From positions 9,823-73,822 of the IMG/VR virus record IMGVR_UViG_3300023116_000031: 64,000 nt of DNA, one strand, 5' to 3'. The notes below the pieces were generated by a model. It had not been told where the DNA came from and did not search any database. It saw only the letters and a program-made list of their open reading frames with translations. Positions 1,703-43,875 of this stretch are shown one piece after another. A program made the position numbers and the translations under genes. This stretch comes from a virus. Numbering within the stretch: position 1 is the stretch's first letter; each line of letters begins with the position of its first letter.

Positions 1703-2548
1703 ATGAAGTCTTTCAAAACTTTCATTACCGAGGCCGGCGCAAACTATGAGCGTCAAGAGAATGAACTAATCCGATCCATCAAGGCAGCTTACAAGAAGAA
1801 TGGTAGACGACCATTTACGCTGGTGGACAAGGAAGGTAAGCGCCTAAAGAACATCGTTGACGCAAAGAAGTTCGATGATAAGGTTACCACAGGACATGAG
1901 CCATATACTGATGTCCAGCTCATCACAAGCACGGGTCGCAAGATCAACCTGTCGAACAAGGGAGACAGCGCACCATCTGTGGCTGGTGGTGGAATCGAAG
2001 GCCTTGAAGAGATTGTACCTGGGATCACCAAGAATCTCTGTGCAGCAGCGCGGAAGTGGTATAAAGCCAACGGATATAAGACGGGAGACTATGGCGTTGA
2101 TCTGTTCGCGAAAGTCAATGAGGACGACAAGGAGAAGATCATCATCGGCACCAAGAAGATGGGCGGGCCCATTCACTATATGTACGTTGGACCAATGGAC
2201 GTAAAGTCTGACTGGGATGGTGAAGCAGGCGAGCTGACCGTCAATGGTAGAATGACCCCATCCAAGACATACGCTGCGAAGTACGAGATCCATTACCGCA
2301 TTCGCCGCCGACGCAAGCATATGCGACTCGACCTTGAATCCAAGGATCGACGTGGTTATTACTCGCTACTCGCAACACCACAGGACATCGAAGTCAAAGA
2401 TCCAAAGACGGGTAAAATGAAGTTCAACGAGAAGAAGTATGGAACAGAGGGCAAGAAAGAGTGGAATGCGAAGCCGAAGCGAGAAGTGAATCGCCGCATC
2501 GTCATTTCTAAAGCACCACCCAAGAACGCCAACATCGTAGTATTCTAA
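1703..2548 (+). CDS. PD-(D/E)xK-like nuclease with capsid-targeting leader
   Basis: Start re-assigned to ATG 1703 (RBS GAGGAG). Begins MKSFKTFITE|A. Motifs ERQE, PYTDV and LSNK. Paralog of 33678..34733. Confidence 0.65.
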   Translation: MKSFKTFITEAGANYERQENELIRSIKAAYKKNGRRPFTLVDKEGKRLKNIVDAKKFDDKVTTGHEPYTDVQLITSTGRKINLSNKGDSAPSVAGGGIEGLEEIVPGITKNLCAAARKWYKANGYKTGDYGVDLFAKVNEDDKEKIIIGTKKMGGPIHYMYVGPMDVKSDWDGEAGELTVNGRMTPSKTYAAKYEIHYRIRRRRKHMRLDLESKDRRGYYSLLATPQDIEVKDPKTGKMKFNEKKYGTEGKKEWNAKPKREVNRRIVISKAPPKNANIVVF

Positions 2549-2560
2549 TGGAGAGATGAC

Positions 2561-2725
2561 ATGACTTGGAGCAAGTTCAAAAGCGATTTGAGCGAGAGTT
2601 TCATTCTCGGTATGTTTGGATTTGCTATCGGGCTTGCGCTTCTGATCATATATATTCCGTATTTCATATTCTATGATGTACCACGCACAATAGACAAACT
2701 AATAACTCGACTGGTGAGAGGATGA
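2561..2725 (+). CDS. Small membrane protein
   Basis: 54 aa with one hydrophobic segment (FILGMFGFAIGLALLIIYIPYFIF); RBS GGAGA. Confidence 0.5.
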   Translation: MTWSKFKSDLSESFILGMFGFAIGLALLIIYIPYFIFYDVPRTIDKLITRLVRG

Positions 2726-3054
2726 TAATGAAGAGACTTGAGAGCTTTGCTCATGTGATGATGGGATTTGGTGCTGGGCTGGTGAACCTTCGGCTGCTAC
2801 TTAACATGCGTGAACTAAAACAACTGCCACCCGAGAACGACAAGAACCCTGTGTTATGGATACCATACATCGGAGAGAAGAACTGGGACTGGTGTAAAGC
2901 GTTTCGTGGCTCCGCATATGGTGGCAAGGAATACTGGTCAAAAGAAAGAGTGATGGACACACTCAACGACTCGTGGGAGTATCGTGTAGGGGAAACCATC
3001 TCTTGGTTCTTCGTGTTAGGTGGTGGCATGGCCATCGGAAAGTATCTGCTCTGA
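2722..3054 (+). CDS. Hypothetical protein with C-terminal hydrophobic segment
   Basis: ORF track; tightly packed between neighbours. Confidence 0.55.
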   Translation: MIMKRLESFAHVMMGFGAGLVNLRLLLNMRELKQLPPENDKNPVLWIPYIGEKNWDWCKAFRGSAYGGKEYWSKERVMDTLNDSWEYRVGETISWFFVLGGGMAIGKYLL

Positions 3055-3064
3055 GGAGACAACA

Positions 3065-3937
3065 ATGTATCGTATCATCATTACAATCGTGGCTGTATTG
3101 CTTTTCGTGTCACCATCACAGGCTGTTAAGGTAGATCAGGGTGGTAAGGTTCTGAACGAACATGCAGTTCAGATCGGTGGCAAGCGATCACCATTAGGGT
3201 CAAATGCTCCTGTTCAATCATCTGCTGGCACTTTCTATGGTGTTAGTTTTGCTCCAGCTTACACACCTGCATGTGCATCACCATATAGCGGATTTCCGAT
3301 TGATTTTGAGGGATCTGGAACTTGTGCTGCTCAAGAGGCCCAAATCACATTCGCCACGAGCGGCACCGATTGTGACTACACAACAACTGTGCTGGAGGGA
3401 TCGGAGTCTGCTTATCTAAATGGACAAGAACTTAGAATGCTACTTGGAGGAGTGGCAACTGACTATAAATCGGCTAAGACTCGAATGGCATGGAGATATA
3501 GATATGTCACTGAACCCAATAATAATCGTCTTTTCGTTCAGCCCATGAATGGAGCTACCGTGACTCCAGTTTCATGTACCTCAAGTCATTGTATGAAACT
3601 ATACAGTCTTGTTAGTAGCCCGAACATACAATATAGATTTTATGATACTGAAGGCGCCCCTCCTTACTTCAGCTCGACTAGCACAGGTAGTTCACTCGTA
3701 ACTGGAACAACGTATCTAATGTGCTATGAATATGATCCATCGGTTGATACATCTTGGTTCTTCGTTGATGAGGTAGACGGAGAATGGTGCGCTGGAGCCT
3801 ATGCTTCTTTGAACTGGGCAGGGAATGGCGCAAATGTCGCTGTCACCGACTTTAACGCATTTGGTATCACAGCAGATTTTGGTGCCAATCTATATGAAGC
3901 TATTGTTGATGAGATCACAGCTTGTGATGCTCCATAA
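3065..3937 (+). CDS. Secreted Cys-rich beta-sandwich (lectin/LamG-like) protein, paralog A
   Basis: Start at ATG 3065 after GAGGAG. Signal peptide MYRIIITIVAVLLFVSPSQA|. Beta-rich C-terminal domain with several Cys. Confidence 0.7.
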   Translation: MYRIIITIVAVLLFVSPSQAVKVDQGGKVLNEHAVQIGGKRSPLGSNAPVQSSAGTFYGVSFAPAYTPACASPYSGFPIDFEGSGTCAAQEAQITFATSGTDCDYTTTVLEGSESAYLNGQELRMLLGGVATDYKSAKTRMAWRYRYVTEPNNNRLFVQPMNGATVTPVSCTSSHCMKLYSLVSSPNIQYRFYDTEGAPPYFSSTSTGSSLVTGTTYLMCYEYDPSVDTSWFFVDEVDGEWCAGAYASLNWAGNGANVAVTDFNAFGITADFGANLYEAIVDEITACDAP

Positions 3938-3957
3938 CACATTTTAAGGAGATACTA

Positions 3958-4806: not shown

Positions 4807-4829
4807 TGATACCCCAACGTGAGAATCGA

Positions 4830-4870: not shown

Positions 4871-4899
4871 GCTCGAAACTCTCACGCAAGGATCAAAAA

Positions 4900-5235
4900 A
4901 TGGATGCCGAACCCGTCAACTATGTAACTGCACAAATAGCAATGGCTCCATACTACTTGGAGGGAGTGGCCGCAGTTGGAACGGTGTTCGCAGGAGCAAT
5001 CTATCGTCTATGGCAGCGTGTTGACCATGACCACAAAGTCACAAAGGTCGAACTTCAGAAGTGTCTTGATGAGCATAGTCTGACAAAGCAAGAGATGTCT
5101 GACATTCGCGAAGAGCTTGGCTTTGTACGCGGGCGCCAAGACGGCATCGAAGATATGTCACGCAATGTGCTGGATACCATCGCACGCGGAAATTGTGCGA
5201 GAATGGATAGCGGCACATCACCAAAAAACGACTAA
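4900..5235 (+). CDS. Membrane-anchored coiled-coil protein
   Basis: N-terminal hydrophobic helix followed by a heptad-like helix. Confidence 0.6.
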   Translation: MDAEPVNYVTAQIAMAPYYLEGVAAVGTVFAGAIYRLWQRVDHDHKVTKVELQKCLDEHSLTKQEMSDIREELGFVRGRQDGIEDMSRNVLDTIARGNCARMDSGTSPKND

Positions 5236-6227
5236 CGCACCGATCCTCGAATCTCACCACGGCGTCGAGCATCACCTACTGCTCGTGTGAACTCGGATGC
5301 TGTGTCGTGATAACTGAATGTAAACTTATATTTCTTGGCCAATGCGAACATCATGCGATTGATGCTAAGTAGCACGTCAGGGTTCGTTTCAATCTCACTC
5401 ACCCATGTCTTCTCACGGGGAAAGAACGCAGTGATAAAGTCACTGTAGAAACTATGGTTTCGATAGATGTAGAGGTGCTTGATGTCGAAGTTGTTGACCA
5501 CAAGCTCATCCCAACTCTCATCGTATTCGTCTGGATTTCTATCATACGCAGCTTGCATAAGCTCTCTCGCGACGATCTTTTTGTGCTTCTTCATGAGTGC
5601 TTCGAGCCCATCAATGTATTCTCTAACGATCCGCCCCTTGATAGTCTTGACGTTTGTTGATTGGTTTCCAACCTTCATGTTCCAGCCATAAACAGCGCCT
5701 TCAATGTCCTTCCACCGATTGTTGATTTCTCGACGATCCCGAGTGTCAGCCACATTCCACGCACTTGCGTCCATGCCTGCATACTTCGCAAGTAGTTCGA
5801 GTCGCAGACTCAAAATCTTGTCAATCACGTCACGCCCCGGACCATCCCAACTAAACACGTTCTGTGCAGCTACCCATCGTCTGCCATTACCATCCGGCTG
5901 CGACATAATGTCCTCTGGGTAGTCGATCAAAATGTCCGCATCAATGTCCGCAACGACACCACCTCTCGTCTGAACACCACTCACCAGAGATGTCGCACCC
6001 ATATGAGTGAACGCGCTGATGCTCTTTCTCTTGCCTTGGAGCTTGAAAAACTCCTTCATTTTTGAAGCATCCATCAAGTGTCGCACGCGATCACGAGGAA
6101 CATTGCCCATGACACGTTTCATAATCGTCGAACTAACAGGCACAAACAAAGAGGAAGTAAAGATAAACTCGGTGACTTTCTTTGTCCACGCTGGCGCTTC
6201 TTCCAGATACTCATTAAATCCCTTCAT
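5232..6227 (-). CDS. Hypothetical protein with capsid-targeting leader (putative internal head protein)
   Basis: Start re-assigned to 6227 (RBS AGGAG). Begins MKGFNEYLEE|A. Confidence 0.7.
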   Translation of the reverse strand: MKGFNEYLEEAPAWTKKVTEFIFTSSLFVPVSSTIMKRVMGNVPRDRVRHLMDASKMKEFFKLQGKRKSISAFTHMGATSLVSGVQTRGGVVADIDADILIDYPEDIMSQPDGNGRRWVAAQNVFSWDGPGRDVIDKILSLRLELLAKYAGMDASAWNVADTRDRREINNRWKDIEGAVYGWNMKVGNQSTNVKTIKGRIVREYIDGLEALMKKHKKIVARELMQAAYDRNPDEYDESWDELVVNNFDIKHLYIYRNHSFYSDFITAFFPREKTWVSEIETNPDVLLSINRMMFALAKKYKFTFSYHDTASEFTRAVGDARRRGEIRGSVR

Positions 6228-6238: not shown

Positions 6239-6676
6239 CTAGTAGAAAATCTTGACCTGATCGTCTTTGGCTAAAGCCTTCAGCGTGCGAGACTTGTTCA
6301 ACCATTTCTTGTTGTTGCCCTTTGTCATCACGTCATTGGTGAAGAATACACTTACGGGCGTATTCGCACCATAAGAAACCGTCCCTTGCCCAAAGTCATC
6401 ACCATCTGCGATTGCCATTCCACCACGATCCAACTTCAATCCAAGTTCGCCAGCAGCGACTTGTGCGTGTAGAGCAGAACTCGCATTCCAAGCATAGAAA
6501 TCACCAGCCGGGCTAATAATGAACCGCAGCTCGTCATATTTTTTGATAGCCGCTTCAAGCTCTCGTCGTGTCGGATTGATTAGCCCATCCACAGTTCGAG
6601 CAGGTGCACCCGGCATACGAATATACATCAGGTCGCGCCGTTTTTCAGTCAACACATAACATCCAAACCGTTTCAT
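6239..6676 (-). CDS. Hypothetical protein with capsid-targeting-like leader
   Basis: MKRFGCYVLTE|K; part of the late minus-strand operon. Confidence 0.65.
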   Translation of the reverse strand: MKRFGCYVLTEKRRDLMYIRMPGAPARTVDGLINPTRRELEAAIKKYDELRFIISPAGDFYAWNASSALHAQVAAGELGLKLDRGGMAIADGDDFGQGTVSYGANTPVSVFFTNDVMTKGNNKKWLNKSRTLKALAKDDQVKIFY

Positions 6677-7269
6677 CGCCCCACCCTCCGAATGGCTCCA
6701 TTCACCACCAAATGCTTGCGAAACTCAATGCTCGTGAACTCCTTGGCCAGCTCATCCAGTATATTCACGTTGGGAGCATGATCATCATAGATGCTCACCA
6801 CCGAGGGAGAAAATCGCCCAATGAACTTGCGTATGATATAAGCCTTTCGCTCCTCGACTGTTCCACGCTTCAAATTGCCCGAAAGCTCAAGCCTCAAGTT
6901 CGGTGCATTGACACGAAGGCTATGATCCAACAGAGCATCCTTGAACAACCGATTGCTGTCAAACGAGGCCCGCGCTGTCAACAACACAACCATCGTATTC
7001 GAAGCCCTTAGCTGTTTTTTCACTCGCTCCAACGATCCCGAAATAGCCTCCGATGTCGCACGAAAGAAAGCAGCATTACGAAACTGGCCATAGTCAAAAG
7101 TCTCACCCGGACCCAATCGGTAACTATTGTATTCTGCATTACTCAAAGCCCGAACCACACGCGAGCCCCGCATAACATTCACCCGCGCACGAGTCCTAAA
7201 AATCGTGTCGTCAATATCCCAGAAGGAAAGGTGATCATAGCTGCGTCGCCCCTCGACTAACAACATCAC
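6673..7269 (-). CDS. HAD-superfamily phosphatase (Pnkp 3'-phosphatase-like)
   Basis: Motif I DIDDT, motif II LTAR, K (EERK), motif IV YDD; N-terminus MMLLVE|G. Confidence 0.75.
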   Translation of the reverse strand: MMLLVEGRRSYDHLSFWDIDDTIFRTRARVNVMRGSRVVRALSNAEYNSYRLGPGETFDYGQFRNAAFFRATSEAISGSLERVKKQLRASNTMVVLLTARASFDSNRLFKDALLDHSLRVNAPNLRLELSGNLKRGTVEERKAYIIRKFIGRFSPSVVSIYDDHAPNVNILDELAKEFTSIEFRKHLVVNGAIRRVGR

Positions 7270-7562: not shown

Positions 7563-7587
7563 TACCTTCTCCTTGTTAGGTTCCCCC

Positions 7588-7595
7588 TATTTATG
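7588..7595 (-). promoter_or_regulatory. Late promoter CATAAATA driving the 7562->5232 operon
   Basis: Reverse complement of TATTTATG; same motif as at 1174, 33645 and 39855. Confidence 0.65.
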
Positions 7596-15701: not shown

Positions 15702-16463
15702 ATGGGAGGTTGGATAGTGACCAAACGTGAGCGCCGGCGAATGCGAAAAGCTGAACGTCAACTGCAACTCGTAGGATCAGTAGAACCATTAGAAAAGGAA
15801 AAGCCACAAAGAAGATCAAAGAAAGTGGAAATCAAACCACGGAACTTCAGGCAGCGGCGACTGCTCGCTGCGCTGAACAACGAGGACAATTCAATCGTCC
15901 TCGCGACCGGTCCTGCTGGAACCGGCAAAACCCTCCTGGCGACATTGCACGCCATTAAGGCGCTTCAAGAGAAGACGATCCGAAAGATCGTGATCACGCG
16001 CCCCGCCGTATCGGTTGAGGAACAACATGGCTTCCTCCCCGGCGACATCAATGACAAAATGATGCCATGGCTCATGCCAATCATCGACGTGTTCGAGGAG
16101 TATTATCATCCAGAACAGGTCAAACAGATGATCAAGGATAAGGTCATCGAGGTTGCTCCGCTCGCGTACATGCGTGGACGAACCTTCAAGGATGCCATCG
16201 TCATTCTCGACGAAGCCCAGAACACAACCCCATCCCAAATGAAAATGATTACCACTCGCCTCGGCGATAACTGTCGCTTGTTTATTACGGGCGATGGCGA
16301 TCAATACGATCGAGGTTATGCGAGGAATGGGCTTGGAGACTTTGCCGATCGGTTGCGAGCATACGGCTCGGATCATATTGCCGTTGTGGCATTTGATTCC
16401 GGTGATGTCGAGCGCGCGCCAATCGTGGCTGAGGTGCTGGCGCTCTACGCCGAAGAAGGTTGA
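15702..16463 (+). CDS. phoH: PhoH-family ATPase
   Basis: GPAGTGKT, ITRPAV, GFLPGD, PLAYMRGRTF, ILDEAQN, TGD..Q. Confidence 0.95.
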   Translation: MGGWIVTKRERRRMRKAERQLQLVGSVEPLEKEKPQRRSKKVEIKPRNFRQRRLLAALNNEDNSIVLATGPAGTGKTLLATLHAIKALQEKTIRKIVITRPAVSVEEQHGFLPGDINDKMMPWLMPIIDVFEEYYHPEQVKQMIKDKVIEVAPLAYMRGRTFKDAIVILDEAQNTTPSQMKMITTRLGDNCRLFITGDGDQYDRGYARNGLGDFADRLRAYGSDHIAVVAFDSGDVERAPIVAEVLALYAEEG

Positions 16464-16913: not shown

Positions 16914-16973
16914 CCGCGAGTCATCTTCTTCCCCCGCAGGGATAGTTGACACTCACTCCTCTGCGCTTATATT
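16911..16973 (+). promoter_or_regulatory. Early promoter cassette 5, upstream of the AAA ATPase
   Basis: TGAC-N5-GTCA 16911-16923; CCCCGCAGGG; TTGACA-N16-TATATT 16946-16973. Confidence 0.65.
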
Positions 16974-17031
16974 TTCCAAAGCTCGCGAGAGTTGCGAGCG
17001 AACCCAAAACCCAAAGTGAGGTATTTTCATC

Positions 17032-18258
17032 ATGGCACAGGCACCCTACTCCGGCAAGCCCAAGCAGGATGCGTTCCTGCGCGCGGCTGACGCGGCTGGC
17101 TTTCCCGCTGGCTCCATCGTCGGCTACGCCGAGATTGACTCCATCATCGGCGACGCTACTCGCCCGTGGTGGCTGATCAACGCGATCGAGCATCGCGCTG
17201 GTCGCGGCAAGTTTCTTCTGCCCGCGATCGGCGGTGCGGTTGCGGCTGCTCCGAAGCCCGCGCCCAAGCGCGCTCCTGCTCCGAAGCGCGCTGCGGCTCC
17301 TGCTCCGGTCGCGGCTCCTGCTGCGGTCGAGCCTGTTGTTGCTCCGATTATGAAGGTCAGCTCGGTTTCCTACTCGGCTGTTCCTTCCAAGTCGGACAAC
17401 TTCGTTCCGTTCGGACACTTCTCCGATCTGAAGCAGGTCTTCGACTCTGGCTTCTTCTATCCCGCCTTCATCACCGGAATGTCCGGCAACGGCAAGACGT
17501 TCGCTGTCGAGCAGGCTGCGGCTCGCTCGGGTCGCGAGTTGTTTCGCGTCAACGTGACCGTCGAGACGGACGAGGATGACCTCCTCGGTGGCTTCCGCCT
17601 CGTCGATGGCGAGACGCGATGGTTCGATGGTCCCGTCGTCGAGGCCATGCGACGCGGAGCGATCCTGCTCCTCGACGAGATTGACCTTGCGTCTAATCGG
17701 ATCATGTGCCTCCAGCCTGTCCTCGAAGGCAAGCCTGTGCTGCTGAAGAAGATCAATGAGATCATCACTCCTGCTGATGGCTTCACGATCGTCGCGACGG
17801 CGAACACGAAGGGCAAGGGGTCCGACGATGGTCGCTACGTTGGGACCAACGTGCTGAACGATGCGTTCCTTGAGCGATTCGCGATCACGTTCGAGTGGGA
17901 CTATCCGTCCGCTCCGGTCGAGACCAAGATCATCTCTGGGACTCTCGCCAAGCTCGGTGTGGACGATAAGGAGTGGGCGAAGCAGCTCGTGACTTGGGCT
18001 GGCATCACTCGCGCGTCCTTCGCTGAAGGTGCGGTTGACGAGTTGATCGCCACTCGACGGCTTGAGAAGATCGCCCAGGCTTTCGCCATCTTCGGTGACA
18101 AGCGCAAGGCTGTCGAGCTTTCGCTCAATCGCTTCGATGCCGAGACCAAGGAGGCCTTCATTGACCTCTACGACAAGGTCGTCGGTGACGAGCCGATCGA
18201 GGCTGCGGAGCGACACGCGGCCCCCGACGGCAGCGAGTCCTCGGAGGTTCCCTTCTAA
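17032..18258 (+). CDS. MoxR/CbbQ/CobS-like AAA+ ATPase
   Basis: Walker A GMSGNGKT, Walker B LLLDEID, ATANTKG.G, AFLERF, C-terminal TRRL; Ala/Pro linker after an N-terminal domain. Confidence 0.9.
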   Translation: MAQAPYSGKPKQDAFLRAADAAGFPAGSIVGYAEIDSIIGDATRPWWLINAIEHRAGRGKFLLPAIGGAVAAAPKPAPKRAPAPKRAAAPAPVAAPAAVEPVVAPIMKVSSVSYSAVPSKSDNFVPFGHFSDLKQVFDSGFFYPAFITGMSGNGKTFAVEQAAARSGRELFRVNVTVETDEDDLLGGFRLVDGETRWFDGPVVEAMRRGAILLLDEIDLASNRIMCLQPVLEGKPVLLKKINEIITPADGFTIVATANTKGKGSDDGRYVGTNVLNDAFLERFAITFEWDYPSAPVETKIISGTLAKLGVDDKEWAKQLVTWAGITRASFAEGAVDELIATRRLEKIAQAFAIFGDKRKAVELSLNRFDAETKEAFIDLYDKVVGDEPIEAAERHAAPDGSESSEVPF

Positions 18259-23134: not shown

Positions 23135-23135
23135 T

Positions 23136-33579: not shown

Positions 33580-33599
33580 CACGAATCTGATTGATTCAC

Positions 33600-33629
33600 A
33601 GCCCGCTATCTTCGGATGGCGGGCTTTTT
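33600..33629 (+). terminator. Rho-independent terminator with UUCG tetraloop
   Basis: AGCCCGCTATC-TTCG-GATGGCGGGCT-TTTT. Confidence 0.88.
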
Positions 33630-33644
33630 CAGGTCCTGCTGTGG

Positions 33645-33652
33645 CATAAATA
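33645..33652 (+). promoter_or_regulatory. Late promoter CATAAATA
   Basis: Immediately after the terminator and before the late block. Confidence 0.7.
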
Positions 33653-33677
33653 GGGGAGGTTATCGGGAGGATTTGTC

Positions 33678-34733
33678 ATGGCAAATTATGGAGCAATAAA
33701 GACTGGAACAGAAATGACCAGTTGGGATTACTATATTCTTGGTAACAAAGATATGCTCAAAAAGACATTCAAAACCGACAAGGCTGGGGACATCCTAGAT
33801 GACCGCGACAGGAAGATCGCCAAATTTGCCAAAGGGGTGAGTCTGAAACTTCTCGACACCGGAACCTATCCAGGGCCAGGAAGGGTTCCTTACGCTAGAG
33901 TCAATCTAGCCGGGACGATTGGATACATCAAGATTTCATGTATCCAAAAACTAACATCAGGAACAACTAAAGTATCGGGTAAAGCTGGAATCCGACCTCA
34001 AGAGAGACAAGAATTTGGTGTGATCGAGGCGATCACCAATTTCTACAATTCATATGGAAAGCCAATCACAATTCTGAACGCGAACAATAAGTATCCCAAG
34101 ATCACAGGGGTAACTGGTGCTAGTAAAAATGATGGAACGAATCAGTATGGAAAAGAACCATATGCTGATGTTTGGGTACACAGGAGAGGGACAAAGTTAG
34201 GGGTTTCAAATAAGGGTGAATCTGCTCCGTCTGTGGCTGGTGGTGGATTGGAGGGAATGTATAGGATGGACGCAGCCTATATGCACAAGATATTCAACAA
34301 AGCACTCAGCGAATCAATGAAATCAGAAGGATTTGAGATCGGATCGCACACAAAATTGTCTGACATTTTCGTTAAGGTTGATTCTACCGATTTCATCAAG
34401 AAGATGTTCGTCGGAACGACGGAGATGGGTGGTCCCGTTGACTATATGTATATCGGTGACATGGATGTTGCATTTGAGGTAGACAGCAAAAAGGGAACTC
34501 TAAAATTCACGAACGGAAACTTCATTTCCGTTGCCACATACGTTCGCGAACACCCTAACATTTACTTTAGAATCAGAAGAAGAGATGTAGGCTTCTACTA
34601 CACAAGTGAGCTTGATGAAAGATTCATGCTGAATGGCAAGGGTCTTCCGTACATTTTCAAAAAAGGCAATACTGCAAGATCACGATTGGTCGTGGTTACC
34701 AAACCGACCGCCGGGTCTTTGGTTATCACATGA
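33678..34733 (+). CDS. PD-(D/E)xK-like nuclease with extra N-terminal (SH3-like) domain
   Basis: ERQE, EPYADV, VSNKGESAPSVAGGG, MGGP..YMY.G.MDV, Y.RIRRR all shared with 1703..2548. Confidence 0.65.
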   Translation: MANYGAIKTGTEMTSWDYYILGNKDMLKKTFKTDKAGDILDDRDRKIAKFAKGVSLKLLDTGTYPGPGRVPYARVNLAGTIGYIKISCIQKLTSGTTKVSGKAGIRPQERQEFGVIEAITNFYNSYGKPITILNANNKYPKITGVTGASKNDGTNQYGKEPYADVWVHRRGTKLGVSNKGESAPSVAGGGLEGMYRMDAAYMHKIFNKALSESMKSEGFEIGSHTKLSDIFVKVDSTDFIKKMFVGTTEMGGPVDYMYIGDMDVAFEVDSKKGTLKFTNGNFISVATYVREHPNIYFRIRRRDVGFYYTSELDERFMLNGKGLPYIFKKGNTARSRLVVVTKPTAGSLVIT

Positions 34734-35638
34734 CATTCAACGACTTCTTGACAGAGAATAATACCTTTCGCGGAGATGCGAATGAGATCGTTCTGGGAGT
34801 TCAGCTCGCAGGATCATGGGATAGTATTATCAACTCATCAGAAGTCAAGAAAGCTCTCAAGGTTCGTCGCGATGCACTCGATCCAGAAGAATACGCAGAG
34901 GAGGAACGCAGAGCGAAGACCATGGCACCCGAGCTGAGAACTTGGTTCGATGAACAAGGTTTCGGTAAGATCAAGACAGTCGAGTGGGTGGGCAGAACGA
35001 CATCTGATTCGCCCAACGCTGTGGATTTGATCGTGACATTTACTGACGGAAAGACATTTGGTGTCTCTGCGAAGAGTACCGGGCAGGGAAGAGAGATTGT
35101 CTATCAGTCAGCAGGGCTTGGTACGATTGACTCTGCGCTCAAGACCAATCTCGTGGACACCCGAAACAGAGCAGAGCAGCGATTTATTGACAAATACAAC
35201 CTATCGGATCAGCCTATTCGCCGGAAGGAAGAGATTCGAGGAAATCCTATTATGACAAAGAAGGCGAACGAAGAGCGCAGCGTAATACTTCGGAACATTA
35301 GAAATACGCTATATCGTAAACTAGACATGCTACCACAACCCAAACTGAAGCAGTTCATTTCCACCCAACTGTTAGGTGATAACACCCATTCTTTGGGTTA
35401 TGTTCAAGTGACGGGGCATGGATCTGGTAAAGTCACGATCACAAATCCGAAGAAGAACGAAAAGCGAACAGCCCTGAAGACACAGAAGGTCGTCATGGAC
35501 AAAAGCGGTAATGACTCAATTACATTCAAAGCAGGGGACATAAATATAGCAAGGGTAAGAATCAAGTATGGTACAGTTCCGCTTGCGACCCCGATTGAAG
35601 TTTCTATTGATCCTTGGTCTATTGTGAGGAGTGAGTAA
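34730..35638 (+). CDS. Restriction-endonuclease-like PD-(D/E)xK protein with capsid-targeting leader
   Basis: MTFNDFLTE|N; GDANE helix; NAVDLIV...FGVSAK. Confidence 0.65.
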   Translation: MTFNDFLTENNTFRGDANEIVLGVQLAGSWDSIINSSEVKKALKVRRDALDPEEYAEEERRAKTMAPELRTWFDEQGFGKIKTVEWVGRTTSDSPNAVDLIVTFTDGKTFGVSAKSTGQGREIVYQSAGLGTIDSALKTNLVDTRNRAEQRFIDKYNLSDQPIRRKEEIRGNPIMTKKANEERSVILRNIRNTLYRKLDMLPQPKLKQFISTQLLGDNTHSLGYVQVTGHGSGKVTITNPKKNEKRTALKTQKVVMDKSGNDSITFKAGDINIARVRIKYGTVPLATPIEVSIDPWSIVRSE

Positions 35639-35963: not shown

Positions 35964-37550
35964 ATGCGTAAGCTATTTTACATACTGGTCTGTATTGTTG
36001 CTGTTCTTCAACTCGGATCATTTATTAGCCTCAACCTTGGTGGCGGGACTAGTGCTGTGCCTAGAGAACAGGGTTTGCAAACTAATATAGAAGAACTTAC
36101 TCGATTCCATGATCTCTGGGTTAATGAAGGCGGAACTGGACCTGTTACTACTGATCGTGGGTTACTGGCCACAGATGCGGGTGCCGCGAAAGATAGCTGG
36201 GCATATTCTATTGATGCTGGAGATTGGGAATGGGATTACATTCCAGAGCCAACATGCATTCCCGTTGGCGCGCTCGGGTTGGGCCCGGAATACGATCTTG
36301 ATGGTGCTGCTTCAGACATTCTAGCCATGGCACTATACGGTGCTTTACTGGATATTAATTCACCCGGAACAGGAGATGCCTATTTTTCTGCTGTTAAGAC
36401 ACGCATATTAGAATTTACTAACATAACGGGATTTGGGGGAATTTTCGAAGTCCCTGAAGTAATGCTTCAAAATGGGTGTATTTTTGCAATTTCGTCTGCT
36501 ATTCCGCAGATACTTGAAGCAGCATGGCTGATTGAGGAGGCTGGATATACTGAAACTAATGAATGGGAATCTTCCGATCGACAGACTCTTGCTTTTTGGG
36601 CAGTAAATGTTGTGTTTCCACTTGCAAGTTTTGATGCTAGACAACGTAAAGAATATCAGGGAATTACTGGATTGGGTGCGACAATGGCTATCGCAGCATA
36701 TTCTGTTGGTATACAAAATACAGGTATAGTTGAAACATGGGATGGCTATAGGACTACGCCGAATAACTGGCTGTTGCAACCATCAACTGATCATTTACTA
36801 GAGTGGTTGGACAATTCTACAGGCCAGGCGAAAGGGATTCGAAATAGTGCGTGTTTTCAACAAAATCGTACTTTTGGGCTTCAGTCAAATGGTAGGTTCC
36901 CCGATGAAACTAGACAGGTGGAACAGAATACTTTTGGTATGCCTCCTTATGGTGGATTTATTGACGATAGTGGGAGAACTCCTTTCCCATCCAACAACGT
37001 CGCTTCATGTGATTATGGGAGTCTTGGTGCGGTCGCGGGCGATCCGCTCGAAGATCCAAATGGAACCTGTAGCACACTTTCCGGGCAAATTACATCTGGA
37101 TGCCTAAGTCATGTCCAATTTCAACAGTTGGCAACAAATTCTTTTGCTCGCACCTGTGAGATATTTCGACGGTTAGACAAAGGCGGCGGCCGCTGTTTCG
37201 ATTTAGACGTGCATAACCCAGGAGGCGGAACAACAGCACTAAATTCTGCTATTTTGTTTTCAACGACAGAACTTTTGGCAGCCGGAGATGTCCGGTACCG
37301 AACTTTTGGGCCATATCAAGATTTCTGGACACACGATGAACTTCAAGGATACATTCATGTTGCATCAACTTATTATGACAACTATTGTTCATATATTGCT
37401 CTAACAGACGGAGATGTTCCTCTTCAGGGTGGGGATATGTATCCGTATACAAGAATCACACACAGAGACGGTGTAGCTCATGTCGGCCCTCTTTCTGCGG
37501 GATCGACTTGGGATTGCGCTACATGGGATAACACGTTATGGTCAAATTAG
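35964..37550 (+). CDS. Secreted protein with alginate-lyase-like (alpha/alpha) toroid fold
   Basis: Signal/anchor MRKLFYILVCIVAVLQLGS; helical pattern LEAAWLI..W...D...L..W; G.FPDETR; many Cys. Confidence 0.55.
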   Translation: MRKLFYILVCIVAVLQLGSFISLNLGGGTSAVPREQGLQTNIEELTRFHDLWVNEGGTGPVTTDRGLLATDAGAAKDSWAYSIDAGDWEWDYIPEPTCIPVGALGLGPEYDLDGAASDILAMALYGALLDINSPGTGDAYFSAVKTRILEFTNITGFGGIFEVPEVMLQNGCIFAISSAIPQILEAAWLIEEAGYTETNEWESSDRQTLAFWAVNVVFPLASFDARQRKEYQGITGLGATMAIAAYSVGIQNTGIVETWDGYRTTPNNWLLQPSTDHLLEWLDNSTGQAKGIRNSACFQQNRTFGLQSNGRFPDETRQVEQNTFGMPPYGGFIDDSGRTPFPSNNVASCDYGSLGAVAGDPLEDPNGTCSTLSGQITSGCLSHVQFQQLATNSFARTCEIFRRLDKGGGRCFDLDVHNPGGGTTALNSAILFSTTELLAAGDVRYRTFGPYQDFWTHDELQGYIHVASTYYDNYCSYIALTDGDVPLQGGDMYPYTRITHRDGVAHVGPLSAGSTWDCATWDNTLWSN

Positions 37551-38587
37551 ACGAAGTATATAAGAACTCAGGGCTTGGTAAATGGTTCCACAAGCAATCT
37601 GCTGGTGGAGAGCCTGGATGGGATCGATACAACAGCAAAGGCGAGAAAGCTGGAAAGTGCGGTGACAGCAAGCCAGGTGAGCCTTATGCTGCGTGTCTAT
37701 CCAAGCAGAAAGCAGCCAAGCTAGGAAAGAAGGGTGTCAAGTCCTTTGTTTTACGCAAGCGAGCAAAGCAGCGCGAGCTAGGCAAAGGAAAGAAAGATAT
37801 TAGTGGTAAAGGAAACAAGCCTATCAATGTAAAGACAGGCGTGACGGACAAAGATCCTAACAAGAGAGGAATACAAGAAATGAGTAAGTCATTCGACGAT
37901 TTTCGCACGGAACTACAAGAGAAGAATGTTCCTACAAACCCTAAGTTGTGGTCTTCTGTTCTCGCAACGACCCGTTCAAAGTTTGATGTGTATCCTTCAG
38001 CATATGCTAACGCATGGGCAGCAAAGGAATATAAGAAGAAGGGTGGAGGCTGGCGCAAGTCCAAGGGTAAGGTGGACGAGGCGATTATGGTCGCTCTTGA
38101 CGAGAAGTCTGCGGCAGATAAGCTCAAGGCGCACATGAAGGCTGGCGAGAAGTATCGAAGGAAAGATGGAGATCGCAGAAAGGGTCCAATTTTCCGACCA
38201 ATGAGTGATAAAGAGAAGGATGAGCGTATTGCTCATACCAAGCGAGAAATCCAGCTTCGGAAGCAGGTTGAGCGAGAGCGAGCAAAGCGACGTAACGAAG
38301 AGGTCGAGCAGGTTGACGAGAAGTCTGCTGCGTGGCAACGCAAGGAAGGCAAGAATCAGGAAGGTGGTCTGAACGCAAAGGGTCGTGCTTCATACGAACG
38401 CGAGAATCCCGGCAGCGATCTGAAAGCTCCCGTTTCCGCAGCGCAAGCAAAGAAGAGCAAGGGTGGAAAGGCTGCGAAGCGTCGCAAGTCATTCTGCGCT
38501 CGAATGGGTGGAATGCCCGGACCAATGAAGGATGAGAAAGGTCGCCCAACACGCAAGGCACTTGCTTTGAGAAAGTGGGATTGTTAA
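37538..38587 (+). CDS. Basic multi-domain virion-associated protein (DUF5872-like plus DUF6321-like)
   Basis: KFDVYPSAYANAWAAKEYKKKGGGW; AAWQRKEGKN.EGGLN.KG...RRKSFCARM...RKWDC. Confidence 0.75.
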   Translation: MVKLDEVYKNSGLGKWFHKQSAGGEPGWDRYNSKGEKAGKCGDSKPGEPYAACLSKQKAAKLGKKGVKSFVLRKRAKQRELGKGKKDISGKGNKPINVKTGVTDKDPNKRGIQEMSKSFDDFRTELQEKNVPTNPKLWSSVLATTRSKFDVYPSAYANAWAAKEYKKKGGGWRKSKGKVDEAIMVALDEKSAADKLKAHMKAGEKYRRKDGDRRKGPIFRPMSDKEKDERIAHTKREIQLRKQVERERAKRRNEEVEQVDEKSAAWQRKEGKNQEGGLNAKGRASYERENPGSDLKAPVSAAQAKKSKGGKAAKRRKSFCARMGGMPGPMKDEKGRPTRKALALRKWDC

Positions 38588-39841
38588 GTGGAATCATTCC
38601 GCCAATATATTGTTGAAGAGAAGGGGCAAAAGAACCTTCATATGACTCATTTGGAAGAGCTTATTCTTCTGAATGGGGTGACTGGCGGTCGTGATTCGAT
38701 CAACTTTCTGCGTTCGGTTCGAGACATGCTAGCCGGGCAGAGCAAGAAATCAGTCAACATAACAGTCAAATGGGATGGCGCACCTGCGATTTTTGCTGGC
38801 ATTGATCCAGAAGACGGAAAGTTTTTTGTTGGAACCAAAGGAGTGTTCAACAAGACACCCAAGTATGTCAAATCGAAAGCTGATCTGTCACAATATGGTT
38901 CTGGATTACAGGACAAATTGAGTATCGCATTTGATGAACTCAAAAAGATGAATATACCAAAGGGAATTGTTCTTCAAGGTGACATGCTGTATGGGCCTGG
39001 TGATTTAGAAGAGAAAGACTTTGATGGTGTGAGTCATGTGACATTTACTCCGAATACGATCACATATGCTATTCCAAGCAATTCTGCTCTGGCCAAGCGA
39101 GTGAAGAAAAGTAAAATAGGAGTCATCTTTCATACCACATATACGGGTGACACGCTACAGGACATGACAGCCTCATTTGGTGCTGATGTGTCTAAGCTAC
39201 GAAGAACGGGTAGTGTGTTTTTTGATAACGCAGACTATCGTGACGTATCAGGAACAGCTACACTGACAGCGAAGGAAACAACTGAAGTCACTCGTTATCT
39301 GTCTCGTGCGGGAACAGTATTTCAAAAGATTCCCGGGCCAGCTCTACGAAAGTTTCTGACGTTTCAGCAATCGTTGTCTGGATCGGTTTCTGGAGCTTCT
39401 TTTGCCACATATACCAATAGTCTGATTCGTCAGGGCAAGACGATTACAGATCCGCGTAAGCATACCAGAGAATATAGAGAGTATTTCAAGAACTACTGGG
39501 AGACGAAGGTGATTGCGAAGGTGAAGAGCCCCGCGAAGATCGAAGAGAAGCGTCGGCTCCTGAAGGAGCATTTGCGGGCTATTGCGGAGATCGAAGTTAC
39601 CCTACGAAGTGTCATTGAGTTTCAAATTAACATCATGGCAGCAAAGAATATGTTGGTAAGAAAACTCAACACTGCTGGAGGAATGGCGAGAACCTTTGTG
39701 AAGGTGAATGACGGCTATCGTGCGACTACACCAGAAGGATTTGTTGCGATTGACAGAATGAGCGGAAACGCAGTTAAACTTGTGGATAGACTGGAGTTCT
39801 CTCATCTCAACTTCACAGTAGCCAAGAATTGGGACAAGTAG
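38588..39841 (+). CDS. DUF6267-like ATP-dependent ligase-superfamily nucleotidyltransferase
   Basis: Motif I KWDG, III QGD, IV EGFV, V AVK; N-terminus MESFRQYIVEE|. Confidence 0.75.
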   Translation: MESFRQYIVEEKGQKNLHMTHLEELILLNGVTGGRDSINFLRSVRDMLAGQSKKSVNITVKWDGAPAIFAGIDPEDGKFFVGTKGVFNKTPKYVKSKADLSQYGSGLQDKLSIAFDELKKMNIPKGIVLQGDMLYGPGDLEEKDFDGVSHVTFTPNTITYAIPSNSALAKRVKKSKIGVIFHTTYTGDTLQDMTASFGADVSKLRRTGSVFFDNADYRDVSGTATLTAKETTEVTRYLSRAGTVFQKIPGPALRKFLTFQQSLSGSVSGASFATYTNSLIRQGKTITDPRKHTREYREYFKNYWETKVIAKVKSPAKIEEKRRLLKEHLRAIAEIEVTLRSVIEFQINIMAAKNMLVRKLNTAGGMARTFVKVNDGYRATTPEGFVAIDRMSGNAVKLVDRLEFSHLNFTVAKNWDK

Positions 39842-39854: not shown

Positions 39855-39862
39855 CATAAATA
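39855..39862 (+). promoter_or_regulatory. Late promoter CATAAATA
   Basis: 8 nt upstream of ATG 39871. Confidence 0.6.
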
Positions 39863-39870
39863 GAGACACT

Positions 39871-40245
39871 ATGGCAAAAGACCTGTCTGAAATGCGCGAG
39901 GAGCTACAAGAAGCCCTAACGACTGCTCAACGAATGAAGCGGCGAATGGTGTTCCGTCGGTCAAAAGCCAGAATCAAGATAGCACGAGAACGCGCCCAGA
40001 AGAAACTCGCACCAAAAGAAAAGCTAGAAAAGCGAGCAATGAAGCAGGCTAGAAAGAAGATCGAGATGAAAATTCTTGGAGGTAAGAAAAAAGACGATCT
40101 TCCGTTTGCAGCACGAACCGCGATTGAAAAGAAAGTGGATCAGCGATCTGCTGCTATTAAGCGCCTAGCAAAACGAATGTTTCCTGGCGTCCGAAAAGCT
40201 GAACTTGAGAGACTTCAAGCATATCGGAGAGGTGGACCAAAATGA
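39871..40245 (+). CDS. Highly basic helical protein
   Basis: K/R-rich after an LQE|A leader. Confidence 0.7.
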   Translation: MAKDLSEMREELQEALTTAQRMKRRMVFRRSKARIKIARERAQKKLAPKEKLEKRAMKQARKKIEMKILGGKKKDDLPFAARTAIEKKVDQRSAAIKRLAKRMFPGVRKAELERLQAYRRGGPK

Positions 40246-41099
40246 GTACCGCAGTAGTCACATTCGGTCGATTTAATCCTCCTCACATTGGGCACAAGCT
40301 CGTGGTGGATACGGTCAAGAAGATCGCAAAGAAAGAGAAAGGAACGCCTTTGGTGTTTCTTTCCCACACTCAGAATCAGAAGAAAGATCCTCTGACATAT
40401 GATCAGAAAATCAAGTTTGGAAAGTCTTTTTTCGGTAACGTAATACAAAAGACGAATGCGAAGAACATCGTTCAGATTGCTCAGGAACTCGATGACAGCT
40501 ATGATAATCTCGTGATGGTTGTGGGCGCAGATCGTGTCAAAGAATTTGATAATATGCTTCAGAGATACAACGGAAAGGACTTTGACTTCGACAGTGTAAA
40601 AGTCATTTCCGCAGGAGAGCGAGATCCAGACGCAGATGATGTAACCGGAATGAGTGCGTCAAAAATGCGAAAGCTCGCTGCTGATGACAACTTTGCCGAG
40701 TTCAAGAAGGGTGTTCCGAAGGCAACTATGGCTCGTGCGCTGTTTGATGCAACTCGACAGGGAATGAGAGTTAATGAGAGATTTGAAAAGGATGGTGTAT
40801 TTGATCTAATTGAAGCTCTTGAGGAGCGAGAAGATTGGGACGATCTTACCGAAGATATTATAAATAACAGACGATTCAACTCACTTTTGAGATTTGGTCT
40901 TGTTGCAGATCGAGATATTCCGATTACAAAAAGAGCTTTCTCTGACTTGAAACGAGCAAATGTTGACTGGACACTGAGGGACATGGTGTTTCAGGTAACA
41001 CAAACTATGGCCGATTACATTTTAGAGGATGATCTACTCTACAACAGATTACTGTTACTCGTTCAGCGAGATCAGTTCTTCAATAATAAAAAAGACTAG
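40242..41099 (+). CDS. HIGH-family nucleotidyltransferase (T4-like 'cytidyltransferase')
   Basis: TFGRFNPPHIGH, KDPL, VGADR, SAG.RDPD....GMSASKMR. Confidence 0.88.
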   Translation: MSTAVVTFGRFNPPHIGHKLVVDTVKKIAKKEKGTPLVFLSHTQNQKKDPLTYDQKIKFGKSFFGNVIQKTNAKNIVQIAQELDDSYDNLVMVVGADRVKEFDNMLQRYNGKDFDFDSVKVISAGERDPDADDVTGMSASKMRKLAADDNFAEFKKGVPKATMARALFDATRQGMRVNERFEKDGVFDLIEALEEREDWDDLTEDIINNRRFNSLLRFGLVADRDIPITKRAFSDLKRANVDWTLRDMVFQVTQTMADYILEDDLLYNRLLLLVQRDQFFNNKKD

Positions 41100-41108
41100 G
41101 AGATAACT

Positions 41109-41963: not shown

Positions 41964-41975
41964 AGGAGAACTAAA

Positions 41976-42656
41976 ATGCCTAACTGGACAGGAAATTCAG
42001 CACCAAATTGGTTTAAGGATTTGTCTGATAGTCAATCCGCAGATCGGCCTAATCATCCAAATGGACCGATTGGTGATCTTTATTTGGATGCTCGTGGGTG
42101 GGTACGAGAAGTATCATACACCGATCAACACGGTCGCAGCCGAACAAAAGAAGAAGTTGTCATTGCAGACCGACAAGCACAGTCAGAGAGCGGAACCGTG
42201 TTTGTTACAGACATTCGTGTTGCGAATGCTGCTGACTTTACAACCACACCTCCTACCGCTGCCGCGGCTGCTAGTGGCTCCGGTACTAAGTGGGTGATTA
42301 CATTCAATCAGCCAGTTGCTACTGGAGGGAGTACCACATTTACATGGGGTGGATCAGCAGACGATGGGCCAGGAACCGTGACTGCATTTGAGGCTACTTA
42401 TGTATCAGGAAATTTGACAAATCAAATTACAGTCGAATATGATACAAGCACATTTGCTGCTACTAGCCCCGTTGGTCTGACTGGTGTATGCACGCTTGGT
42501 GTTGATGCCTATGATACTTCTGCGGAAGCAGCCATATCATCCGCAACTGTAAAAAATATTCCTGCTGGATCTGATATTACATCGTATGCTACTGGTGTTG
42601 TTGCATCTACCGTAACATTTGTTGATGGAGCAACAGCTAACGTCGTTGTTGGATAA
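41976..42656 (+). CDS. Putative structural (Ig-like) protein
   Basis: RGWV...R...E.VI N-terminal motif; Thr/Gly-rich beta C-terminus. Confidence 0.65.
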   Translation: MPNWTGNSAPNWFKDLSDSQSADRPNHPNGPIGDLYLDARGWVREVSYTDQHGRSRTKEEVVIADRQAQSESGTVFVTDIRVANAADFTTTPPTAAAAASGSGTKWVITFNQPVATGGSTTFTWGGSADDGPGTVTAFEATYVSGNLTNQITVEYDTSTFAATSPVGLTGVCTLGVDAYDTSAEAAISSATVKNIPAGSDITSYATGVVASTVTFVDGATANVVVG

Positions 42657-42667
42657 GGAGCATAGCT

Positions 42668-43114
42668 ATGCGCGCGTTTATTACAATGTTGATCGTGCTG
42701 TTGATGACAGCTCCAGTGTTTGCAGCAGATTATACCAAAAAGGTTCCAACCAACAAGTGTTCGGCTCCTGTTAGTATCACAGACGGAGACAACTGGTATT
42801 GGGATATTGGTTATTCATCAAACGCTGAAGCTGCTCCTGTTTCTGTTTTTCTTGATCACGACATCGGCGATACTTCGATTTCAGCTCAGAGATTGACTCT
42901 TTACGCCTGTTTAACTGCTGAAGATGCCAATAGTTGTATTGCTCTTCAGTGGGACTCCGATGCTGATGGTGTCCCAGATACCAATGTCATGGGTGCGACT
43001 GCTGCGTTGACGGATACTGGTGTGACAGGAATCAGTGGATTCCCATATCTTCGTATTGAAGAGACAGGCACAGTAGATTCAAATGCAAGATATGTTGTTT
43101 GTAGGGGATTTTAG
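42668..43114 (+). CDS. Small secreted Cys-containing beta protein
   Basis: Signal peptide MRAFITMLIVLLMTAPVFA|; 4 Cys. Confidence 0.7.
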   Translation: MRAFITMLIVLLMTAPVFAADYTKKVPTNKCSAPVSITDGDNWYWDIGYSSNAEAAPVSVFLDHDIGDTSISAQRLTLYACLTAEDANSCIALQWDSDADGVPDTNVMGATAALTDTGVTGISGFPYLRIEETGTVDSNARYVVCRGF

Positions 43115-43135
43115 TATAGCATACATATCTACATT

Positions 43136-43525
43136 ATGGCAGATGACTTGAATGATAACACGATTGATATGTATATGCTTAGATCATACATGAACCCTCA
43201 ATGTATTGGCATTGAGGAATATAATGATGATGTGAGTCGTATTAAGTATATCAAAAGGTTACTAAACAGGTATGCCACAAATGGAGAGTTAAAAGAACAA
43301 CTACTATTGAATCATGTGATTATCATATACAATGTGTTTGGTGTGATTCCAGCCACTAGAATATTGTTCTATAATATACAGGAGGAACACTGGTCAGCAC
43401 TTAAAACGATTATGGTGTTTCTTCAAACTATGCCTGATGTAGTAAGAGGCATCAAAGGTAGGGACATTTTAGACTCGGACATTGCGGTTGATTTAGAGAT
43501 CGCAAGGAGATTGCGAGAAATATGA
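43136..43525 (+). CDS. Conserved T4-like hypothetical protein (Y.NP.C...EE..D..R.KY.KRL family)
   Basis: L.LNH.I..YNVFG motif; located upstream of primase. Confidence 0.8.
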   Translation: MADDLNDNTIDMYMLRSYMNPQCIGIEEYNDDVSRIKYIKRLLNRYATNGELKEQLLLNHVIIIYNVFGVIPATRILFYNIQEEHWSALKTIMVFLQTMPDVVRGIKGRDILDSDIAVDLEIARRLREI

Positions 43526-43875
43526 AATCATTTGAAGAACTACGAGAAATGATGGGTATGGGTGGAGGAGGCATTGCTGGGTCTGCTGAAGCTGGTGATG
43601 ATCCACCAGTCCGAAAGAAGGATCAAGCAAAGCTGATTCGTCGCAACAGATTTATGAAGAATGAGGTATTTGAAGTTCCTGCTGATGTGTATAATCGTAT
43701 TCTACGCCCCAAGTTCAATTCAGAGAGATTCAACTCTATTGTGGGAGCAGATGAGATTGGAGAAGCGATTCGTCAGTATGCCAAAGACAACCCAGGTAAA
43801 GGCATTCTAGTTCAATGTGAAAATACTGGGTGTATGACATGGTTGAGACTACCTCGCGTAAGGAAGGCTAAATAG
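43522..43875 (+). CDS. Hypothetical protein with capsid-targeting-like leader
   Basis: MKSFEELRE|; IRQYA..NP...I..Q...TG.M..LR. Confidence 0.7.
   Translation: MKSFEELREMMGMGGGGIAGSAEAGDDPPVRKKDQAKLIRRNRFMKNEVFEVPADVYNRILRPKFNSERFNSIVGADEIGEAIRQYAKDNPGKGILVQCENTGCMTWLRLPRVRKAK

Follow-up and report, generated by a model that had tools for sequence, protein, structure and literature searches.

Why should a set of otherwise unrelated proteins, encoded by one marine virus, begin with the same short peptide? The question is raised by a 64,000-nucleotide stretch of DNA, hereafter the window, that comprises bases 9,823-73,822 of a 73.8-kb viral contig from IMG/VR (IMGVR_UViG_3300023116_000031) with a completeness of ∼40%. 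The phage is an uncultured marine T4-like myophage whose kin are the OM43 phage Melnitz and the cyanophages (Kyanoviridae). The window carries a T4-type replication module that comprises the gp45 sliding clamp, the gp44/gp62 clamp loader, RegA, family-B polymerase gp43, UvsX, gp41 helicase, primase, class II ribonucleotide reductase and ThyX. Its nearest cultured relative, as judged by a DUF6267 protein with 50% identity, is the Methylophilales phage Melnitz (Kyanoviridae), and the same protein is matched in hundreds of cyanophages. A first-pass annotation quoted ten N-termini from the window, all of which are indeed present in the DNA where it placed them, and proposed that they are leaders of the capsid-targeting sequence (CTS) type that precedes the T4 internal proteins IPII and IPIII (MKTYQEFIAE↓A, where the arrow marks the cleavage site). 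It is well supported that at least four of these proteins (1703, 6227, 34730 and 38588, each named by the position of its start codon) carry a true homologue of the T4 CTS. The best explanation, which we regard as probable, is that T4-type leaders on unrelated enzymes serve to load them into the virion, by analogy with IPII and IPIII.

The four leaders graded strong belong to a 281-residue restriction-endonuclease-like protein (1703-2548, plus strand; MKSFKTFITE↓AG at nucleotides 1703-1732), a 331-residue protein to which no fold was assigned (5232-6227, minus strand; MKGFNEYLEE↓APAW), a 302-residue protein (34730-35638, plus strand; MTFNDFLTE↓NN, one residue shorter than that of T4 with equal spacing) and a 417-residue DUF6267 protein with a predicted RNA-ligase-like fold (38588-39841, plus strand; VESFRQYIVE↓EKGQKNLH; Pfam E 4e-98). 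The strict core of the motif, [FY]xx[FY][ILVR]xE, was searched in the 23,868 residues of called proteins of the whole 73.8-kb contig, where it occurs eight times. Five of the eight matches begin 2-4 residues past a start codon (1703, 6227 on the minus strand, 34730, 37880 and 38588), against ∼0.06 expected at ∼100 N-termini. A matrix scan of N-termini, proposed together with the original claim, gave the same picture: with matrices built from leaders outside the contig, the top three of 2,476 possible starts were 1703, which scored highest, 6227 and 38588, and 37880 also stood clearly above background. No score was obtained among the replication proteins (gp45, gp44, gp62, RegA, gp43, UvsX, gp41, primase, ThyX and ribonucleotide reductase), as had been claimed for the core replication genes. 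Phenylalanine at position 4 is combined with phenylalanine or tyrosine at position 7, and isoleucine or leucine at position 8 with glutamate at position 10, in 1703, 6227 and 38588; in 34730 the spacing is retained one residue nearer the methionine, and LTE closes the leaders of both 34730 and 6676. Behind these short, extreme N-terminal leaders the protein bodies are otherwise unrelated, according to Pfam and PHROG searches and similarity comparison.

The leader behaves as a module with an exact boundary in the homologue families. In the 1703 family, 118 homologues were anchored on an invariant ERQE; the 74 that possess a leader read leader-E↓AGxxxERQE, and the other 44, which are leaderless, read M-AGxxxERQE. 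The prefix has a modal length of ten residues (exactly ten in 43/74), ends in glutamate (P1) in 70 of the 74 and has leucine or isoleucine at P3 in 69/73, with phenylalanine at position 4 in 52/73 and tyrosine or phenylalanine at position 7 in 57/73. Positions 4, 7, 8 and 10 are the four most conserved of the leader, for which the consensus is M-K-[ST]-F-K-[EQ]-[YF]-[LI]-x-E↓AG, with some environmental members beginning MKTYKEFILE↓AG. Four members have the leader, then ELLL, a methionine and AG, that is, a leader fused upstream of a retained start methionine. Among the best 150 of 2,569 DUF6267 representatives, most begin M-x-[ST]-F-x-x-[FY]-[LI]-x-E-x-K-N-[LT]-H and ∼17 are leaderless and begin M-[AS]-K-N-[TL]-H. 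In both families the start of the leaderless members coincides exactly with the P1' residue predicted. Of 60 homologues of the 6227 protein, nearly all begin MK[ST]FKQY[IL]xE and some MKTYQQLLFE, and a conserved APAWT body follows the leader after a variable linker of 0-10 residues. A search for loci related to that of the 6227 protein returned nothing with the single protein and needed an alignment as the query. In the 34730 family the leader is kept ahead of a conserved FRGD in all seven informative homologues.

The four conserved positions of the marine leaders are those mapped genetically in T4, where the amber-suppressor work of Mullaney and Black assigned the main targeting function to CTS residues 4 and 7 and processing to residues 8 and 10 (PMC9026906). 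The CTS concept, and the presence of CTS-like leaders in T-even relatives, are already established (PMC3012670, PMC9026906). As a cross-check, T4, the cyanophage S-CREM2 and Melnitz were scanned with a matrix for which marine leaders of the 1703 family were the sole training set. Among 3,030 possible starts in T4, it placed gp61.1, which scored highest, IPIII and IPII as the top three and IPI sixth; gp61.1 (AF158101, 18966-19130, minus strand; L108) is a 54-residue hypothetical protein, encoded beside the primase gene, that starts MKTFKEFIKED. In Melnitz the matrix selects syntenic genes, including those of an ATP-grasp protein and the DUF6267 protein, and others. The top three of 4,841 starts in S-CREM2 were ORF14 (APH/ChoK-like kinase, VKRFDAFLTEE), ORF154 (cytidylyltransferase, MKNFSSFLTEA) and ORF6 (S-adenosylmethionine (SAM) hydrolase, MKDFDSFLEE).

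Leader-bearing enzymes have been shown in purified virions of these relatives by published mass spectrometry. In CsCl-purified virions of S-CREM2 (Kyanoviridae), 52 of 219 open reading frames (ORFs) were detected (PMC10665884, Table 3), and ORF14, ORF154 and ORF6 are the proteins that were described there as 'regulatory, non-structural' and left unexplained. ORF13, ORF136, ORF15 and ORF155, which have looser leaders, were likewise detected, and ORF87, a leaderless DUF6267-like protein, does not appear among the tabulated virion detections (PMC10665884). The virion table of S-SZBM1 lists a cytidylyltransferase with the leader MRFRQFIIEA; the adjacent DUF6267 protein, which is 39% identical to that of the window and leaderless (start MAKNTHLEHLED), is not in that table (PMC9146016). 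Virions of S-SM1 are also reported to contain a cytidylyltransferase (Sullivan et al., PMC3037559). The orthologue in the window is a leaderless cytidylyl/adenylyltransferase with a HIGH motif (40242-41099, plus strand; Pfam CTP_transf_like), while its orthologue in Melnitz, like those in S-CREM2 and S-SZBM1, has a leader (MKKFSEIIEA).

The genes in question also lie in late-promoter context. A pattern search found four exact copies in the window of CATAAATAGRG, the core of a T4-type late promoter. Each is followed after 15-34 nt by a start codon in the matching orientation, and three stand at the head of blocks of leader genes. A late-promoter-like CATAAATAGGG (7585-7595, minus strand) is followed by a small ORF (7562-7434) and then by the 7269/6676/6227 operon. 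On the plus strand, direct reading reveals a terminator-like hairpin and T run followed by a second late-promoter-like CATAAATAGGG (33599-33655 overall, the element at 33645-33655), which heads the unit running from 33678 through the DUF6267 gene, and CATAAATAGAG (39855-39865, plus strand) lies 5 nt upstream of the 39871 start and heads the unit beginning there. A further such element (1171-1181, minus strand) precedes a gene for a 1,305-residue protein. The canonical TATAAATA is not enriched in the window (1 match versus 1 expected), and CATAAATAGRG is the informative element. None is found at the untagged SAM lyase gene 25829, within a regA-dUTPase cluster. The leader genes of S-CREM2 each have (T/G)ATAAATA 19-22 nt upstream, and TATAAATAG lies ahead of the first leader gene of Melnitz. 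The proposal of T4-style CTS on unrelated proteins is well supported by the family-wide boundaries, the T4 cross-check, the virion proteomes of two relatives and the late promoters.

Four further proteins, 6676, 39871, 43522 and the polyprotein-like 37538 protein, probably carry a CTS as well. The 145-residue 6676 protein (6239-6676, minus strand) has an 11-residue variant of the leader, MKRFGCYVLTE↓K, behind a GGAGG ribosome-binding site, and was graded plausible because no homologues were retrieved; the same 11-residue pattern is present in P0002, a homologue with 79% identity to the 1703 protein that starts MQSFKSFLLTE↓AG. Also plausible is the long-form variant MAKDLSEMREELQE↓A of the 124-residue, very basic 39871 protein (39871-40245, plus strand), of which the Melnitz orthologue (38% identity) begins MKKFSELTSELIE. 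It resembles a leader copy, IQE↓MSKSFDDFRTELQE↓K (nucleotides 37880-37921), that lies inside a 349-residue basic, multi-module protein ending in DUF6321 (37538-38587, plus strand). Since phrog_727 spans this entire ORF and relatives conserve it at full length, 37880 is not a gene start there, and the motif is real but internal. Two relatives (L063 and L055) have IQE-MKSFRELTAELQE-KNEP at this point and a third (L062) has IQE-KNEP, lacking exactly those 13 residues; the C-terminus of the protein resembles S-CREM2 virion protein ORF137. The short leader-like start MKSFEELRE↓MM of the 117-residue 43522 protein (43522-43875, plus strand) was again graded plausible. This protein was rejected as a homologue of T4 gp61.1, the likeness being confined to the first residues. 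In related phages (L031, L052, L057, L022 and L088) its homologue is the C-terminal module of ORFs of ∼900-1000 residues in which modules are joined by EEVE[LI]DE linkers and internal leader-like motifs of the form xFSKFITE↓GR occur. With their numerous (I/L/V)xE sites, these ORFs have the look of polyproteins, a pattern that the internal copy at 37880 fits.

Two of the claimed leaders were rejected, neither showing the pattern of residues 4 and 7. The 198-residue HAD-like 7269 protein (6673-7269, minus strand), whose gene is the first large one in the minus-strand late operon, begins VMLLVE↓G, with no aromatics at these positions and a matrix score equal to background. The SAM lyase (25829-26419, plus strand), encoded between regA and the dUTPase gene, begins MKTLLE↓A; its MKTLLEASLTRIYQK aligns to residues 14-29 of S-CREM2 ORF6, behind the leader of ORF6 itself (MKDFDSFLEEFDR), so the copy in this phage lacks the tag. 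The ten leaders originally described thus comprise four close matches to that of T4 (1703, 6227, 34730 and 38588), a good but internal one (37880), three plausible variants (6676, 39871 and 43522) and two that fall away, and about 5-8 proteins, rather than about ten, are credible as cargo. One weak extra candidate, a 54-residue membrane protein with a hydrophobic helix (2561-2725, plus strand; start MTWSKFKSDLSE, matrix score 8), is probably not cargo. The 34730 protein was considered as an orthologue of the syntenic leader protein at 12203 in Melnitz, with which it shares no similarity. The window also encodes a 351-residue leaderless paralogue of the 1703 protein (33678-34733, plus strand), with an unrelated N-terminal domain of 108 residues; its residues 109-302 match residues 16-203 of the 1703 protein with 38% identity (BLASTP, E 2e-32).

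What, then, would be delivered? Pfam and PHROG searches gave no match for the 1703, 6227, 6676 and 34730 proteins. In the AlphaFold2 models of both the 1703 and the DUF6267 protein the body is well folded, and the leader is appended to it at low confidence. In the DUF6267 model (predicted local distance difference test score (pLDDT) 89), leader residues 1-13 are below 50. Alignment with VIA-align gave NgrRnl (5cot) at Z 8.9 (191 residues, r.m.s.d. 3.9), T4 Rnl2 at 7.9, REL1 at 7.7 and many other ligases; with Foldseek nothing matched at E≤0.001, and profile-based searching of PDB sequences gave only a spurious match to a ribosomal protein. Residues K61, D63, G64, E383, G384 and K397 are invariant in 46/46 sequences (KxDG of motif I, which holds the catalytic lysine, EG of motif IV, EGxV, and K of motif V). 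Motifs and predicted fold together support an RNA-ligase-like protein of the ATP-dependent RNA/DNA ligase superfamily, in line with its first description as a ligase-like nucleotidyltransferase. Fusion to an N-terminal HIGH-motif cytidylyl/adenylyltransferase is seen in many DUF6267 representatives, and fusion to a P-loop kinase in one (P0174, P0204, P0223, P0225, P0235, P0251, P0252, P0265, P0267 and P0175), with the order leader, transferase and DUF6267 in P0251. The fusions with the transferase indicate a functional link, or a shared pathway, between the neighbouring genes 38588 and 40242.

The 1703 protein is restriction-endonuclease-like at the level of its predicted fold (pLDDT 88). The top VIA-align matches, all with Z<8, are MspI (Z 6.7, 174 residues), I-Ssp6803I (6.3), HinP1I (6.0), HhaI endonuclease (5.4) and Hjc, all of them nucleases with the PD-(D/E)xK restriction-endonuclease-like fold; Foldseek gave no match at E≤0.001. 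Residues E19, E66, D70, S84 and K86 are invariant in the family. The 34730 protein is possibly restriction-endonuclease-like too, a lead that comes from ESM Atlas neighbours with RE_HaeIII or R-HinP1I domains (score 0.95), so that of the two nucleases originally announced the first is backed by its fold and the second is a lead. The HAD phosphatase named as cargo was not sustained: besides its unconvincing leader, the 7269 protein matches Pfam HAD_SAK_1 at 22.2 bits, below the cut-off of 25.6, with a DIDDT motif at residues 19-23. The 25829 protein matches Pfam PF23780 (SAM lyase) at 41 bits against a cut-off of 28 and is homologous to ORF6 of S-CREM2, a virion-borne protein whose leader it lacks. 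In Melnitz, a HhaI-type cytosine methyltransferase (L003, 4010-5227) has the leader-like start MKYFRYTLDE, and the HinP1I/HhaI-like fold of the 1703 protein might have to do with a packaged pair of methyltransferase and nuclease. As a pointer to the target of the nuclease, depletion of GCGC, CCGG or GGCC was considered and was not seen; the depleted site is GTAC. Across the contig GTAC occurs 74 times versus 207 expected under a second-order model, and TGCA, AATT and CTAG are low too. GCGC, CCGG and GATC are not depleted on the contig; GATC is nearly absent from Melnitz (24 versus 499).

Other features of the window are recorded here for completeness. Between 8000 and 19400 the G+C content is ∼0.51-0.55, compared with ∼0.44-0.48 across most other parts, and long antisense ORFs occur. 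Within this region lie phoH (15702-16463) and, opposite an ORF called at 16921-18216 on what is probably the wrong strand, a gene for a MoxR/CobS-like ATPase (probably 17032-18258, plus strand; compare S-CREM2 ORF56). An ORF of 503 residues with a C-terminal HNH endonuclease domain (23085-24596) is inserted between the gp44 and gp62 genes, and contains an internal motif match, MTEYYDFLDE at 24015, that is probably due to chance. The 1,305-residue protein behind the element at 1171-1181 (1-1181 within the window, minus strand) has a signal-peptide-like start and is followed on the same strand, past the window start, by an ORF of 855 residues; both are possibly structural or fibre proteins.

By analogy with T4, the leader genes would be transcribed late from the CATAAATAGRG promoters, the units headed by CATAAATAG being the presumed late units. 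The ten-residue leader, with its aromatics at positions 4 and 7, would dock each protein on the scaffolding core of the assembling prohead, and a gp21-type prohead protease would cut after (I/L)-x-E, at positions 8 and 10. The mature enzyme would remain in the head with the DNA and would probably be ejected into the next host. Packaging in this phage is strongly suggested by its relatives, and a gp21-type prohead protease (PF03420, Peptidase_S77) is encoded by Melnitz and by large related contigs that bear homologues of the leader proteins.

Several points weigh against this explanation. To our knowledge T4 gp61.1 is not an established head protein, despite its near-perfect motif, and we know of no peptide-level evidence of cleavage for any marine phage. 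No recognisable late promoter precedes the 1703 gene, and an active endonuclease packed beside the genome would need a safeguard. A PF03420 profile search found no gp21, and gp22 and gp23 are likewise absent from the 73.8-kb, ∼40% complete contig, so the packaging machinery is deduced from relatives. Confinement of leaderless homologues to genomes without a T4-type head was considered and rejected, as leaderless 1703-family copies are found in contigs with gp21/gp23, including one complete contig of 167 kb. Since homologues with and without the leader both occur in gp21-encoding phages, the leader appears to be an optional module that lineages gain and lose. The exchange of tags between this phage, in which DUF6267 is tagged and the cytidylyltransferase untagged, and S-SZBM1, in which the reverse is true, fits such an optional leader. 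The virion data also hold exceptions: S-CREM2 ORF175 (55 residues) has a leader-like start yet is not listed among the detected proteins (PMC10665884), and S-SZBM1_139 is listed in virions without an obvious leader (PMC9146016). Co-purification of abundant late proteins with virions is a caveat raised by the authors of the S-CREM2 proteome themselves (PMC10665884).

It is rather unlikely that the leader directs proteins into the prohead that are not injected effectors but act in the capsid or its assembly, for example on the DNA packaged there or as accessory parts of the core or scaffold, or that are degraded or retained at ejection. The relatives document presence in the virion and not ejection, several leader proteins (39871 and 37538) are very basic and DNA-binding-like, as structural internal proteins are, and the polyprotein-like ORFs with their many (I/L/V)xE sites resemble chopped-up core proteins. 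T4 internal proteins and CTS fusions are, however, delivered into the host (PMC9026906), and a SAM lyase, a kinase, an NMNAT-like transferase and a ligase have no obvious substrate within a capsid.

Explanations in which the leader has nothing to do with the head fare worse. A general N-terminal trait of highly expressed late proteins with no sorting role, whether a Lys-rich, AT-rich start that makes for efficient translation, a first helix of amphipathic character or a cassette for recombination, is very improbable. MK starts are common, 7269 and 25829, the weakest of the claimed cases, resemble ordinary N-termini, and the motif is also present on T4 gp61.1, with no known head role. Such a trait would nevertheless leave unexplained the exact E↓A boundary and the P1' start of leaderless homologues, the conservation of the four residues mapped in T4, the match between leader and tabulated virion detection in S-CREM2 and S-SZBM1, and the absence of the motif from other late or abundant proteins. 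We give almost no credence to the leader as a recognition tag for some other partner, be it a chaperone, an enzyme that modifies the proteins or a route of secretion. No maturase or transporter is encoded alongside the leader genes in the window, and the motif is almost identical to the CTS that experiments defined in T4.

The marine leaders can be set beside known systems. Like the CTS of IPII and IPIII (that of IPI has 19 residues), which the gp21 prohead protease processes (Mullaney & Black 1996; PMC9026906), they are N-terminal, have a modal length of ten residues and combine aromatics at positions 4 and 7 with isoleucine or leucine at 8 and glutamate at 10, the predicted cut being followed by a small residue; longer, two-part leaders like that of IPI occur here too. 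As with the T4 internal proteins, hypervariable, unrelated bodies follow a constant leader, and the promoters are putative late promoters of the TATAAATA type. The cargo differs, consisting here of mid-sized enzymes rather than small basic anti-restriction proteins. So does the location of the genes, which in T4 are next to gene e and here are found partly between those of helicase and primase and partly in an operon of their own on the minus strand. T4 is also remote in host group and phage family, and the system is described here from sequence. Enzymes of homologous families, namely cytidylyltransferase/NMNAT, APH/ChoK-like kinase and SAM hydrolase, have been reported in virions of S-CREM2, S-SZBM1, S-SCSM1 and S-SM1 (PMC10665884, PMC9146016, PMC9602691, PMC3037559), the members detected being those that bear the leader, and the syntenic block of DUF6267, basic protein and then cytidylyltransferase is common to this phage and cyanophages, although the distribution of tags within it differs. 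The available parts of those four papers mention no targeting sequence and leave contamination as a possibility. Enzymes are also head-loaded and trimmed by a prohead protease at x-x-E in the case of the SPN3US/phiKZ ejection proteins and T4 Alt, but these have long propeptides and no shared ten-residue tag, and the cleavage motif and protease family differ in detail. In the literature searched, capsid targeting and cyanophages are linked only in one T4 review, DUF6267 appears in no paper and no paper applies the CTS idea to marine T4-like phages.

The presence of a T4-type leader on enzymes found in cyanophage virions offers a mechanistic reason for their being there, together with a sequence rule that predicts them, where the authors of the proteomes, as far as the available parts of their papers show, could not separate cargo from contamination. 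With this rule, a concept from laboratory work on T4 reaches phages that are abundant in the ocean, their hosts being bacteria of the SAR11 and OM43 types and cyanobacteria. It flags the uncharacterised DUF6267, 1703, 6227 and 34730 families as likely effectors of the first minutes of infection, and the natural leader variants are candidates for T4-based protein-delivery vectors. A bolder possibility, which we advance tentatively and consider somewhat doubtful, is that the CTS is a portable switch that marine T4-like lineages add or remove, setting whether an enzyme is synthesised after infection or delivered ready-made with the DNA. In this phage the delivered kit would then comprise restriction-endonuclease-like nucleases and an RNA-ligase-like enzyme, and some cargo would be made as polyproteins, which the head protease would cut at CTS copies in their interior and at (I/L/V)xE linkers. 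If the CTS does act as such a switch, the injected proteome of uncultured phages would be readable straight from their sequence.

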